Positions 8,614-11,828 of a stretch of DNA of 30,086 bases are shown here, in pieces. Location of the stretch: NCBI GenBank assembly GCA_025453595.1, contig JALOQB010000032.1:1-30086 (forward strand), read 5' to 3'. This stretch comes from Polyangiaceae bacterium. GTDB lineage: Bacteria; Myxococcota_A; Polyangia; Polyangiales; Polyangiaceae. The translations under genes and the position numbers were made by a program. Under the pieces are notes generated by a model that saw only the letters and a program-made list of their open reading frames with translations, had not been told where the DNA came from and did no database searches. Within the stretch, counting starts at the first letter, position 1, and each line of letters opens with the position of its first letter.

Positions 8614-8705
8614 TAGAAGCGCCGATGAACACGCGACTTCCCTGGATCTCAGCGGTCTTTGCCCTGCTGGTGGGCGCGAGCACGTAGGGGCAGACAGCGG
8701 CGCCT
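8614..8705. repeat. Left copy of an imperfect direct repeat of about 90 bp covering the MscS gene start plus about 11 nt upstream.
   Basis: 'ctagaagcgccgATGaacacgcgacttcc...' versus 'atagaggcgccgATGcacacgcgacttcc...' at 11737. Manual alignment gives about 64 of 88 identical positions, ungapped. Similarity is lost after about 90 nt. Confidence 0.6.
8625..8687 (+). pseudogene. Orphan 5' fragment of an MscS-family gene start (20 codons then a stop), left at the boundary of the inserted islet.
   Basis: ATG at 8625 encodes 'MNTRLPWISAVFALLVGAST*', which parallels the N-terminus 'MHTRLPRVSAAFALLISANAGAQ' of the intact MscS gene at 11750. The nucleotide identity is about 73% over about 88 nt without gaps. 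Confidence 0.45.
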
Positions 8706-8856
8706 TCGGCGCGGGCGCCGCGCCCCGCCCCGCAACCTCGGTGTTCTGGGTAGGACCGCCGCCACAGGAGCCGACTAGGTGGGTCAAGGCGCTGGTGCCG
8801 GATCAGGCCTAGGGCACCGAGGGACGCGTGTTGCAGGACCTTGTTCGGTCACGCTC

Positions 8857-9771
8857 TCAGGGGCAAGACCAACCAGAGCGGTCCTTGAGCCTCCCTTGCT
8901 TGCCGGTCGGTACGTGATGGAGATCTCCCGGCTCTCCCTGCCCCGGAGGAGCGCCATGTTGCGTCACATTGATGGGGTTGAGGCCGATCCTTTCGTGCAA
9001 CGTGGGGGCCTTCAAGTACACATCCCAGTGGTAGCCCCCTCCGGTGGCTGGCCGGGCCCACGCGTTCCCCTGAGCGTCCAGCCAGCAAGGCCGCCCAGAG
9101 TGCACCCCGCACACCCTGGTGGAGCGCCTCTCCCAGTATGGCGAAAGGCAGAAGGGGTGAGCACCAGGGCAGGGGGCGACGGGGAGACGACCGTCCATCC
9201 GAATCGAAAACGGAGCCTCGACATGGCGAGGCCTTGCGATCCACCGGACTGCCCTCGGGGATCGCCCCTGCAAGGCCGCGTAAAGCCTCCACCGGGTCAC
9301 CTCGAGCAGTTCCACACCACCAGAAGAACGATCGCAAGAATTACGCCCTTCTATGTGGTTGCACAGAACAGCGACGTCCTCCTGATGTGCCTGCAGCAAG
9401 GCAGCGCCGAGGACCTCGGTGACGATGTTTGTCCAGTCTTTGCCAAGCCCGCTCCATGCCGCAAGCTCACGCACCCCCCAGACTCTCCCCGCCACAGAAA
9501 CCTTGGAGAGCACACGCCCGCGCCTTGCAAACTCACGGAGCCTGTCGACAGCTTGCTTGAGGTTGCGGTCAGCGCCGTTGAGGTCAGGTCCCTCGGTCCG
9601 GTACACCTCGTCGAAGTAAGCAAAATCTCCCACCTTCGAGAGCAAGACAAAGCCAGGCAACCGAAGGAGCAAGTTGGCATCCTCGACCCGCTGGAGGAGG
9701 CATTTTTTTGCCATGTCACCCGAGAGTCCAGGTTGGCGGAAGAACCCAGGGTCAAGGACCAGCAGGGTCAC
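8857..9771 (-). CDS. Hypothetical protein, translationally coupled partner of the islet ATPase. Function unknown, and the distal half is of doubtful coding quality.
   Basis: GTG start at 9771 overlaps the ATPase TGA (GTGA). The first about 165 aa (MTLLVLDPGFF...VAVLCNHIEGRNSCDRS) have normal composition and lower GC. The remaining about 140 codons are W/C/H/R/P-rich and could be non-coding read-through or a frameshifted tail. Confidence 0.4.
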   Translation of the reverse strand: MTLLVLDPGFFRQPGLSGDMAKKCLLQRVEDANLLLRLPGFVLLSKVGDFAYFDEVYRTEGPDLNGADRNLKQAVDRLREFARRGRVLSKVSVAGRVWGVRELAAWSGLGKDWTNIVTEVLGAALLQAHQEDVAVLCNHIEGRNSCDRSSGGVELLEVTRWRLYAALQGRSPRAVRWIARPRHVEAPFSIRMDGRLPVAPCPGAHPFCLSPYWERRSTRVCGVHSGRPCWLDAQGNAWARPATGGGYHWDVYLKAPTLHERIGLNPINVTQHGAPPGQGEPGDLHHVPTGKQGRLKDRSGWSCP

Positions 9772-11411
9772 GGCTTCGAGCCCGCGAGACTGGCCGGGTG
9801 GGGAGGCTCTCCGTCATCATCGGGCTCCTCACCTTCGTCGTGGATTACTCCCGAAGAATTCCCGGGACTTCCCACATTTTTACGCTTATCCAGCCCGGCA
9901 TCGTAGATGTCACGCTCTTCGTCCGTAGCGACATCCATGAAGTCGCTCGGCCACCGCTCGACATCGCCGCTGGAAGTCAGGCTAGAGATATCGATGCGAG
10001 ATCGTCCCTTGGCGTCCTGAGACACCTCGACGATGCGGACGTTCTCGCGGAGCCATGTCTCCATCTCGCTCCCCTCGGGAACGCGAGCGATCAAGCCACG
10101 TAGCCTGCGGACCAGGTGATCGCTGTGGGTCTCGACGATGAGGTTTCGCCCGCTCCGAGCCAGCGCGACAAACCAGTGGGCCAGCGAGGACTGGAGCTTA
10201 GGATGGACGTGAGCCTCGGGCTCCTCGATGGCGCCATGAGAGAATTTCTGGAGCTGGGCAAGGAACGCGACACGTTCAAGGTTGACCTTAGAGCTGTCAA
10301 AACGCCTGGGGTCGAGCAAGAGCCCGTACTCGATCACCGGGAGCAGGTAGGTCAATCCGCGGCCGACATGCTGAAAATTGGACTTACCAAAGAGGAGTTG
10401 AAAACCGAGATCCCTCTCGGCGATGGAGACCTTACCATGCACCCCCATCGACGCTAGCACGTCGTTGACGGCCCCCTCGAGCGGCTGGGCACGGAGCGAA
10501 GGAAGCTCTGTGATCTTGCCGCCTTCGACCTGGAGAGGGGGTAGGTAGTGAACCCTGTCGTTACGGCGAGCATGCAGGAGTTGCGCAGCATACTGGCCTG
10601 AGACCCCGAGGGTCTCGGGCGGGGTAGTCGCGGCACGATAGAGGAGCGGCGGCGGCTCGCGAAGAGAGCTGAGGTAGCCAAAGTCTCGAAGCACAGCGCG
10701 GAGATCTTCCAGAGGCTGGACAAAGAGGAAAGTCCATAGATGAAGCTGGAGCCTTACCCCTGCGCGAGGGCCGATCTTCATCGAACGCTTGAGCGAGAGG
10801 ACAGGGAGAAAGTGATCCCATTCGATATCCACCTCGCTAAAGTAGTTTCCGTTCAAGAGAGCATGATCTCGAGGATTCTCCTTGGAAATTTTCGCCTTGT
10901 AGCCCCGGGAACAAAGTTCAGAGCTGAGCGATCTGAGAGCAACAGAGGCGAGGAAAGCTCGCTTCTTTTCTTGCCTGAATTGGAGGCGAATTTCGGTCTG
11001 CACCTTGGCTTTGGGAAGGTCGGATGAAAAGCCATCTAGCCCCCCTTCTTTTAGTTGAATTTTCGATGTTTTTCCGATCGCCTCGCGGGCCTTTGCGAGA
11101 TCGATTTCTGATTCAAATGTCAAGCAGATGGCAGGTCCCTCGATGGTCTCGCTATCTTCGTCCCCACCAGGCCACCCGGAGGTGAGTTCCTGCAAACTGA
11201 TGGCCTCGACGGCGCCCTCAAGGTGGAGAGAAACTTCGGTGCGTGGGTAGTCGAGGGTTTGTTTGAGGAGCAAGAGAGCCTGGACCAGGGAACTCTTGCC
11301 GCTATTATTGCGGCCCACCAGCACGGTGAGAGGAGCCAGGTTGAGGTGTGTGCGAGCTTCATAGCTTTTGAAACGTTCGACCTCGATTGAAAGGAGTCGG
11401 GCGCGCGCCAT
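9768..11411 (-). CDS. ABC-type AAA_21/AAA_15-family ATPase, as in the OLD, Septu PtuA, PARIS AriA and Gabija GajA N-terminal families. The C-terminal tail may be DUF3696-like.
   Basis: ATG at 11411. Walker A is 'LTVLVGRNNSGKSSLVQALLLL'. The signature/Q-loop-like region is 'GRGLTYLLPVIEYGLLLD'. Walker B and the H-loop are 'AIEEPEAHVHPKLQSSLA...NLIVETHSDHLV'. The C-terminal 'VERWPSDFMD' is recalled from memory as resembling the end of DUF3696. GC is low, about 50%. Confidence 0.8.
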   Translation of the reverse strand: MARARLLSIEVERFKSYEARTHLNLAPLTVLVGRNNSGKSSLVQALLLLKQTLDYPRTEVSLHLEGAVEAISLQELTSGWPGGDEDSETIEGPAICLTFESEIDLAKAREAIGKTSKIQLKEGGLDGFSSDLPKAKVQTEIRLQFRQEKKRAFLASVALRSLSSELCSRGYKAKISKENPRDHALLNGNYFSEVDIEWDHFLPVLSLKRSMKIGPRAGVRLQLHLWTFLFVQPLEDLRAVLRDFGYLSSLREPPPLLYRAATTPPETLGVSGQYAAQLLHARRNDRVHYLPPLQVEGGKITELPSLRAQPLEGAVNDVLASMGVHGKVSIAERDLGFQLLFGKSNFQHVGRGLTYLLPVIEYGLLLDPRRFDSSKVNLERVAFLAQLQKFSHGAIEEPEAHVHPKLQSSLAHWFVALARSGRNLIVETHSDHLVRRLRGLIARVPEGSEMETWLRENVRIVEVSQDAKGRSRIDISSLTSSGDVERWPSDFMDVATDEERDIYDAGLDKRKNVGSPGNSSGVIHDEGEEPDDDGEPPHPASLAGSKP

Positions 11412-11423
11412 AGTTTCATCGGT

Positions 11424-11450
11424 AGTCTACCTTTGTCGCTTGGTTGTCAA
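11424..11450 (-). promoter_or_regulatory. Putative sigma70-like promoter for the islet ATPase operon (TTGACA-N15-TAGACT).
   Basis: On the minus strand 'TTGACAaccaagcgacaaaggTAGACTaccgatgaaactATG' has a perfect -35 and a 4/6 -10. It sits in an AT-rich stretch ending about 12 nt before the start codon, which implies a very short leader. Confidence 0.3.
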
Positions 11451-11736
11451 TGCTCTTTTGATCGAGCCACAGCCGGCATAGTCATTTGATCGAAAGCGCC
11501 GGAGCACGATGACAGCGCCCGCAATGAGGACAGGCAGACACGCTCGCGGCCGAGGCCGCCCTGGAGGGCGAGCAGCTATCCAGGCGGAGGCCTACCCGTT
11601 CGCGGGGTCCGAAGCCCGGAACGCAGAGTTCGAGACCCGGAAGCTGGGGGCCGGCGCGTGAGCAGGATTGCCGGCAGACCTTCCAGGGCTCGATGCGCAA
11701 CGCGGACCGGTGGGTGAAGCTGCCGGCGTGACGAGG

Positions 11737-11828
11737 TATAGAGGCGCCGATGCACACGCGACTTCCACGGGTCTCTGCAGCCTTCGCCTTGCTGATAAGC
11801 GCGAACGCAGGCGCGCAGCCGGCGGGGT
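11737..11828. repeat. Right copy of the imperfect direct repeat, forming the start of the intact MscS gene.
   Basis: See the left copy at 8614-8705. Confidence 0.6.

Follow-up and report, generated by a model that had tools for sequence, protein, structure and literature searches.

The 30,086-nucleotide (nt) stretch of DNA analysed here, contig JALOQB010000032.1 of the Polyangiaceae bacterium assembly GCA_025453595.1 (hereafter the window), carries a 3-kb islet of two genes that encode an ATP-binding cassette (ABC) ATPase and a partner protein. By analogy with known ATPase-effector systems, we consider it likely that the islet is a self-contained, horizontally acquired anti-phage module of the abortive-infection type built on an ABC ATPase of the DUF3696 class. 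The two genes are coupled to each other and foreign in composition, the domain architecture of both products and the motifs of the ATPase can be read from their sequences, and the pair co-occurs at other loci, including defence neighbourhoods, without an NsnA gene. NsnA is the first component of Menshen (NsnA-NsnB-NsnC), a system reportedly described by Millman in 2022, and the Menshen ATPase NsnB is the best PADLOC model for the ATPase of the islet.

Both open reading frames (ORFs) are on the minus strand and are joined by a GTGA overlap (Table 1). They are flanked on one side by a minus-strand LysR gene at 7469-8419 and on the other by a plus-strand gene of the MscS family at 11750-13027. 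Neither an integrase nor a transposase turned up among the large ORFs of the contig (30 kb), which also gave no tRNA or Rfam matches. An initial annotation made from the sequence alone had described this arrangement of two coupled genes between lysR and mscS, free of mobility genes, and it was right on each of these points. The guanine-plus-cytosine (GC) content of the pair is 59.8% versus 71.1% for the remaining contig, and GC at third codon positions (GC3) is 0.66 in the ATPase gene and 0.70 in the partner gene versus 0.93 in the LysR gene and 0.96 in the MscS gene. This composition is a strong foreign signature. The islet has 54-65% GC in 500-nt windows, the 3' third of the partner gene reaching 65-71%; the 47-58% given initially is seen only when 120-nt windows around 10.7-11.4 kb are taken, but the foreign character that it was taken to indicate stands.

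The ATPase matches the Pfam families AAA_15 (1.5e-22) and AAA_21 (1.3e-17). Its top PADLOC model is NsnB (9e-48, 162 bits, profile positions 4-336 of 345), followed by PDC-M55A (4.7e-31) and the HEC-03 ATPase (2.4e-25); AriA (3.7e-24), GajA (about 1e-13) and Old (5e-13) match only the P-loop and the signature/Walker B ends, and there is a weak P-loop likeness to SMC, RecF and Rad50. Common to 27 homologues are the Walker A motif GRNNSGKS, an HVGRG signature, EEPExHLHP and ETHSDH (H-loop), the Walker B of the window protein reading IEEPE. HVGRG is the GxG signature variant described for NsnB. The same 27 homologues share a C-terminal WPxDFMDE helix (WPSDFMD in the window), on which DUF3696 is detected at 27 bits (cutoff 22) in the relatives P0183 and P0186, which are 48% identical, and at a sub-threshold 12.8 bits, in the same position, in the window ATPase. 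Beyond this DUF3696-like helix the ATPases of the family end in a conserved acidic tail, x-H-D-x-G-E-E-P-E (residues about 517-547 of the window protein, window 9768-9860). Residues about 83-200 form a hypervariable insert with a mean identity of 27% versus about 65% in the core. Pfam and motif reading thus agree with the first description of an AAA_15/AAA_21 ATPase with Walker A, EEPE and an ETHSD box. The chassis of Septu, PARIS, Gabija and OLD to which that description assigned it is shared as far as the logic goes, but the nearest relatives are those of the DUF3696 group (NsnB, PDC-M55A and HEC-03).

Plasmid relatives of the ATPase found with tblastn are annotated as DUF3696 proteins, except for two labelled 'AAA family ATPase'. 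We calibrated the NsnB model on three plasmid loci (B. glumae, Bacillus and Acetobacter). The B. glumae plasmid carries a canonical DUF262-DUF3696-NsnC Menshen (376, 312 and 296 bits, respectively), and the NsnA-less plasmid pairs score 193-257 bits with the NsnB model. True NsnB proteins have 345-362 amino acids (aa), NsnA-less forms 469-605 aa and the window ATPase 547 aa. The NsnA-less DUF3696 pair on the Bacillus paranthracis plasmid (CP041980.1; L023 3416-5907) is PDC-M55, and that on the Acetobacter ascendens plasmid pAP1447-2 (L021 2942-5759; 605 and 335 aa) lies between two copies of IS5 and has a partner that matches no PADLOC family.

A search of 5.8e9 proteins returned 29 full-length homologues of the partner, almost all of 287-319 aa and with 99% query coverage, and when 1.84e9 cluster representatives (50% identity) were searched exhaustively with a profile, 121 partner clusters were found. 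The initial view of the partner as about 165 well-behaved codons followed by an odd tail has to be abandoned, since homologues align over 99% of its 304 residues and the tail is its best-conserved part: mean pairwise identity is 41% in the C-terminal 120 residues versus 24% in the N-terminal domain. The AlphaFold confidence score (predicted local distance difference test, pLDDT) is 87.7 for the whole partner and 95.5 for residues 186-304 alone. Eight residues (R191, L196, W213, W238, H248, D250, N268 and H286) are invariant in 74 diverse members of the family, the C-terminal domain bearing the motifs HWDV and HHxP, and the window partner retains every one of them. A reading of the partner as a zinc-finger protein was rejected, as its Cys residues are not shared by all members of the family. 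Of the acidic tetrad of PIN domains only D7, in the motif LDPxxF, is conserved; going by the structural model, the N-terminal domain is a predicted PIN-like fold that is catalytically dead.

The window partner matched no family in Pfam, PADLOC (E ≤ 1), NCBIfam or PHROGs, its profile found no match among PDB sequences, and a Foldseek comparison of the full model with the PDB gave nothing significant. As stated at the outset, HNH, TOPRIM, DUF4435 and DUF4276 are absent (none in Pfam, PADLOC or NCBIfam), and no described effector family of the kind that, by the reasoning of the initial annotation, would place the pair in an existing system was matched. The only Pfam family that recurs in partner C-terminal domains is Ntox17 (PF15524), found in seven of the 74 members over a span from R191 to the HWDV motif, with scores of 25.7 bits in P0112 (gathering score 25) and 17.9 bits in P0144. 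On these sequence matches, the C-terminal domain appears to be weakly related to Ntox17. A profile search with the C-domain alignment recovered four fragments only and zero Ntox17 toxins, and tblastn of one C-terminal domain against plasmids gave spurious matches only, a Sinorhizobium locus among them being noise.

RefSeq labels the partner relatives WP_395855439.1 (from Cystobacter fuscus, CP043492.1) and WP_437587605.1 'hypothetical protein'. Near-identical DNA is present in the JGI metagenome contig 3300037462 (2 mismatches in 9,401 nt, 99.98% identical), in which the partner ORF (L013 7641-8555, corresponding to window 8857-9771) is intact and identical, yet was not called as a gene. Because this intact ORF went uncalled, the partner family is probably under-represented in protein databases. 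Four members (P0125, P0131, P0142 and P0147) appear to be recurrent internal deletion derivatives of the pair, which we take as hints of toxicity. In P0131, P0142 and P0147, all from metagenome contigs, fragments of the ATPase run in frame into the C-terminal 40-50 residues of the partner; these are either recurrent inactivating internal deletions that keep the 3' end of the pair or assembly chimeras.

In all of about 17 distinct loci, the partner gene lies directly downstream of an ATPase homologue (30-57% identity), usually with an overlap of 1-4 nt and otherwise with no more than about 16 nt between the two. The pair occurs in Polyangiaceae, Nannocystis, Cystobacter fuscus, Sorangium sp. 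So ce1000, other metagenome-assembled genomes of Myxococcota, Usitatibacter and Cupriavidus oxalaticus, and further copies come from metagenomes. The GC content of the pair is 5-15 points below that of its flanks in 12 of 12 loci, the neighbouring genes are unrelated from locus to locus, and no locus has a conserved third gene downstream. A motif scan of 185,579 species genomes found seven loci, which makes the family rare and patchy, and viral contigs yielded no partner relative. DUF262, the domain of NsnA, was found neither in the large ORFs of the window nor upstream of the ATPase gene in related loci, where products with LTD, aconitase, GroEL, DUF488 or MmeI-like domains or with no Pfam match stand instead.

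Several of these loci place the pair among defence genes. At L008 (2495-6445), only 3 nt separate the end of a gene for a 1316-aa MmeI/PglX-like methyltransferase-nuclease from the ATPase gene, and in P0125 an MmeI-like fragment 57% identical to the L008 enzyme is joined to about 60 residues from the C-terminal end of a partner; the linkage between MmeI-like genes and the pair therefore recurs in a second lineage, in deleted form. In Usitatibacter (L011), a ScaI restriction-modification pair lies downstream of the ATPase-partner pair, and L016 has nearby a DUF3226 protein (weak PDC-M38B match) paired with an AAA_15 ATPase. A divergent pair with partner P0112, whose ATPase is 33% identical to the window ATPase over its full length, is found within a MADS-like operon (L024 516-12846; Logan SRR31913536) in the order HTH_17, N6 methylase, 471-aa protein, ATPase, partner, NERD-kinase and MAD7. 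The pair thereby occupies the MAD3-MAD4 position, normally filled by an ATPase and a DUF4276 protein; the authors of the MADS study noted that MAD3 and MAD4 are not reliably present in all systems. At L026 (1-8813; JGI 3300044712), a 583-aa ATPase and P0144 directly follow the PglZ-BrxL genes of a BREX system. The same BREX locus has an AAA_21 and RloB pair upstream. Toxin-antitoxin (TA) genes of the PemK and PIN types lie near the pair in some loci.

How the islet arrived in the window is suggested by its borders. An imperfect direct repeat (about 130 nt with gaps; spacing 3125 nt; Table 1) brackets it and consists of a duplicated mscS ribosome-binding site (RBS) and first roughly 30 codons, the homology starting sharply at the RBS. 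In the left copy, what remains is a dead mscS start of 20 codons, from ATG at 8625 to TAG at 8687 (MNTRLPWISAVFALLVGAST, then stop), beside the native lysR-mscS intergenic region. In the window, the pair has thus been inserted between lysR and the gene that was originally divergent from it, and it is not part of the core genome; the repeat suggests that recombination at the 5' end of mscS brought it in. A search of metagenome contigs with the MscS protein of the window revealed no close relative, and no identical protein is on record.

Flanking repeats were searched for in eight other loci and were clear only in the Usitatibacter locus (DASRRY010000036.1), where the pair lies between an intact groEL and an 82%-identical groEL 3' fragment with its own stop (repeat at 6020-6086 and 9028-9094). 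In two unrelated hosts, therefore, the host gene next to the pair (mscS in one, groEL in the other) has one of its ends in duplicate, the two copies having diverged. This pattern fits a single-crossover (Campbell-type) integration of a circularised fragment that carried a homeologous gene end, a route that we infer from the repeats. Both copies of a 48-nt repeat at the Sorangium locus L015 (5258-5305 and 8972-9019) are intergenic and may belong to a genomic repeat, and apparent flanking repeats at L003 and L005 were rejected because they look like GC-rich low-complexity sequence.

We infer the formation of an ATPase-effector complex, its trigger, the enzymatic activity and target of the effector and the defence phenotype from the predictions made for Menshen and from Septu and PARIS. 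In AlphaFold 3 predictions, NsnB forms a tetramer in which paired DUF3696 helices clamp the inactive PIN domain of NsnC, and ATP turnover is predicted to control the effector as in Septu and PARIS (PMC12065111). HEC-03 (Hma-embedded candidate 3), a pair of an ABC ATPase and a PIN protein, is a validated phage defence for which both genes are required (bioRxiv 10.1101/2024.01.29.577857). A clamp-and-release logic is proposed for the islet because of these Menshen predictions and of the two-gene defence by HEC-03. The ATPase would oligomerise, and its C-terminal DUF3696-like helices would clamp the dead PIN-like N-terminal domain of the partner and so keep the toxin domain silent. Because the NsnA/DUF262 sensor is absent, sensing is assigned to the ATPase itself, which might perceive a phage cue, probably through the hypervariable insert. 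The cue would alter ATP binding or hydrolysis such that the effector is released or activated, and the Ntox17-like domain might then damage nucleic acid (the best guess being RNA, possibly rRNA or tRNA) and stop the growth of the infected cell.

We tentatively extend this proposal to the whole family, in a form that is possible but that we would not yet rely on. The pair may represent a distinct and so far unnamed defence family in which the ATPase insert took over sensing and made NsnA dispensable. The gated effector would share with Ntox17 an as yet uncharacterised toxin fold that lacks a solved homologue and has H-D-N-H as its active site, the cassette might serve as an interchangeable executioner in MADS-like and BREX loci, and the 3-kb islet might spread by recombination at conserved host-gene ends, leaving duplicates behind.

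Several results weigh against a defence module with a gated toxin. The Ntox17 matches are weak, are confined to the seven relatives mentioned above and do not include the window partner, and Ntox17 itself is a mostly-beta polymorphic-toxin domain without known activity (Zhang et al. 2012, PMC3482391). Comparison of the partner-family profile with real NsnC in hhalign gave a probability of 0.3%, and comparisons with PDC-M55B and with the partner of the Acetobacter pair gave no signal. In the window, the islet is surrounded by housekeeping genes outside any defence island, and the four large ORFs next to it that were compared with PADLOC gave no match. In addition, expression of the partner is only predicted, its ORF having been left uncalled in the JGI contig.

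Among other explanations, the one that fares best is that the pair is an addiction or TA-like selfish module in which the partner acts as toxin and the ATPase neutralises it, and which persists by post-segregational killing or by stabilising the islet with no dedicated anti-phage role. The toxin-like C-terminal domain of the partner, the tight coupling of the two genes, the solitary position of the window pair among housekeeping genes, the PemK and PIN TA genes near some loci and the cost to the carrier suggested by the deletion derivatives would all be expected of such a module. Nevertheless, an antitoxin would need far less than an ABC ATPase of 547 aa whose catalytic motifs are invariant and which carries a hypervariable insert, the pair is found repeatedly inside MADS-like, BREX and restriction-modification loci, and HEC-03, the nearest relative that has been tested, protects against phage. 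Moreover, TA activity does not rule out abortive infection. We therefore regard a purely selfish module as unlikely.

It is very improbable that the pair is what is left of a Menshen system after the loss of nsnA, no longer functional and on its way to disappearing. NsnB being the best model for the ATPase, the lack of a DUF262 gene on the contig and the failure of the gene caller to report the partner in the 99.98%-identical JGI contig might all suggest such decay, but the NsnA-less two-gene form is present in all of the about 17 loci, from several bacterial classes and with 30-56% identity. Its persistence across loci so divergent indicates long purifying selection on both genes, and the window copy has all family-invariant partner residues intact. 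The ATPase is also about 200 aa longer than true NsnB (547 versus 345-362 aa), and this extra length indicates a distinct lineage rather than truncation. That the pair instead belongs to the core genome and serves a LysR-regulated housekeeping or repair function (e.g. as an SMC/RecF-like ATPase with a nuclease) can practically be dismissed: the weak P-loop similarity to SMC, RecF and Rad50 and the adjoining lysR speak for it, but GC3 is 0.66-0.70 versus 0.93-0.96 in host genes, the genomic context differs at every locus, the family is rare and patchy (seven loci in 185,579 species genomes) and the duplicated mscS start shows that the pair was inserted between lysR and the gene once divergent from it. 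A horizontally acquired anti-phage module thus remains our preferred explanation of the islet.

Table 1. Positions of the two genes, the partner domains, the leader and the flanking repeat copies in the window.
Feature	Position	Strand	Basis and remarks
ABC ATPase, NsnB/DUF3696 type	9768..11411	-	547 aa; Pfam, PADLOC, motifs
Partner/effector gene	8857..9771	-	304 aa; GTG start overlaps ATPase stop (GTGA)
Partner N-terminal domain, residues 1-185	9217..9771	-	Predicted PIN-like alpha/beta fold
Partner C-terminal domain, residues 186-304	8860..9216	-	Predicted toxin/effector domain
Low-GC operon leader, putative promoter/operator	11412..11500	-	Sequence reading and repeat scan
Left direct-repeat copy, relic mscS start	8614..8711	+	Repeat search, 98 nt, 73% identity
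Right direct-repeat copy, RBS and first codons of intact mscS (ATG 11750)	11739..11836	+	Repeat search; MscS Pfam match

The low-GC leader upstream of the ATPase gene contains a -35-like TTGACA (11450-11445) and, just upstream of it, two copies of TCGATCAAA(A/T)GA at 11465-11454 and 11493-11482, 28 nt apart, which may form an operator. A consensus promoter scan placed no minus-strand site within the leader, and the promoter assignment is weak. Just beyond lysR, a minus-strand gene (4539-7376) encodes a 945-aa protein with an MVP_shoulder match (1e-23) and a Vault_3 repeat, i.e. a bacterial protein resembling the major vault protein. On the other side, a plus-strand gene (13032-16145) encodes a 1037-aa protein with a weak AAA_16 match and no PADLOC family; it lies between two MscS-family genes, the one adjoining the islet and another downstream near 16.2-17.0 kb.

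If functional, the pair would be a minimal system of the NsnB-NsnC type and simpler for biochemistry. Being free of NsnA by nature, it would set sensing apart from transduction, which bears on the way in which Menshen-class ATPases perceive infection. Ntox17 would gain a genetically tractable, cytoplasmic context. The pair would also add a defence family typical of Myxococcota to a phylum with a poorly charted defence repertoire, through an effector that is currently annotated as 'hypothetical' or left uncalled. That the cassette is found within both MADS-like and BREX loci favours the idea that ATPase-effector pairs are exchangeable executioner modules.

Among known systems, Menshen has the ATPase most like that of the window, the two sharing the GxG signature and a DUF3696-type C-terminal helix in addition to the best match to the NsnB model. 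The coupled downstream gene likewise follows the plan of NsnC, with a predicted inactive PIN-like N-terminal domain and a variable toxin C-terminal domain, and the effector families of both are polymorphic. However, the NsnA (DUF262 and ParBDB) that lies upstream in Menshen is absent from the loci of the window family that we examined. The window ATPase also differs from NsnB in its greater length with the large hypervariable insert, in its Walker B (EEPE versus EN in NsnB) and in its score with the NsnB model (162 bits versus 312 bits for bona fide NsnB). Its partner matches neither a PADLOC NsnC/inPIN model nor a profile of real NsnC, and Ntox17 is not mentioned among the 15 NsnC-C families listed in PMC12065111. 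Lacking both NsnA and a match to any NsnC model, the pair is by definition not Menshen.

HEC-03 resembles the pair in consisting of two genes without a separate sensor, in its DUF3696-related ATPase and PIN-fold partner, and in being embedded in larger defence loci. In contrast, the HEC-03 partner is described as a VapC-like PIN protein, whereas the window partner keeps only D7 and has its conserved chemistry in an extra C-terminal domain; it also does not match the PADLOC model of the HEC-03 partner, and the window ATPase scores higher on NsnB. The PADLOC candidate PDC-M55 is similar in combining an NsnA-less DUF3696 ATPase with an overlapping downstream gene (the window ATPase matching PDC-M55A as given above), but the window partner does not match PDC-M55B. 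PARIS, Septu, Gabija and OLD share the logic of an AAA_15/AAA_21 ABC ATPase that gates a bound effector, although the similarity of the window ATPase to theirs is partial and limited to its ends, and the partner has none of the DUF4435/Toprim (AriB), HNH (PtuB) or UvrD-like (GajB) domains. Compared with the Ntox17 polymorphic toxins, the partner may share a mostly-beta domain with conserved D and H residues, but it lacks the N-terminal regions for secretion or trafficking (RHS, MafB, LXG), and no Imm31-like immunity gene accompanies it.

The pair is thus neither HEC-03 nor PDC-M55 by its partner family, and it is not PARIS, Septu or Gabija, although it would work on the same principle as all of these and Menshen. 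The uncharacterised defence module put forward in the initial annotation is upheld insofar as the islet is an accessory, horizontally acquired ATPase-plus-partner pair of defence type with a new effector family. Its two-gene architecture, on the other hand, is not new, because HEC-03 and PDC-M55 already exist as NsnA-less pairs. What is new is the effector family with its weak link to Ntox17, the Myxococcota-centred lineage and the plug-in use of the pair inside MADS-like and BREX loci.

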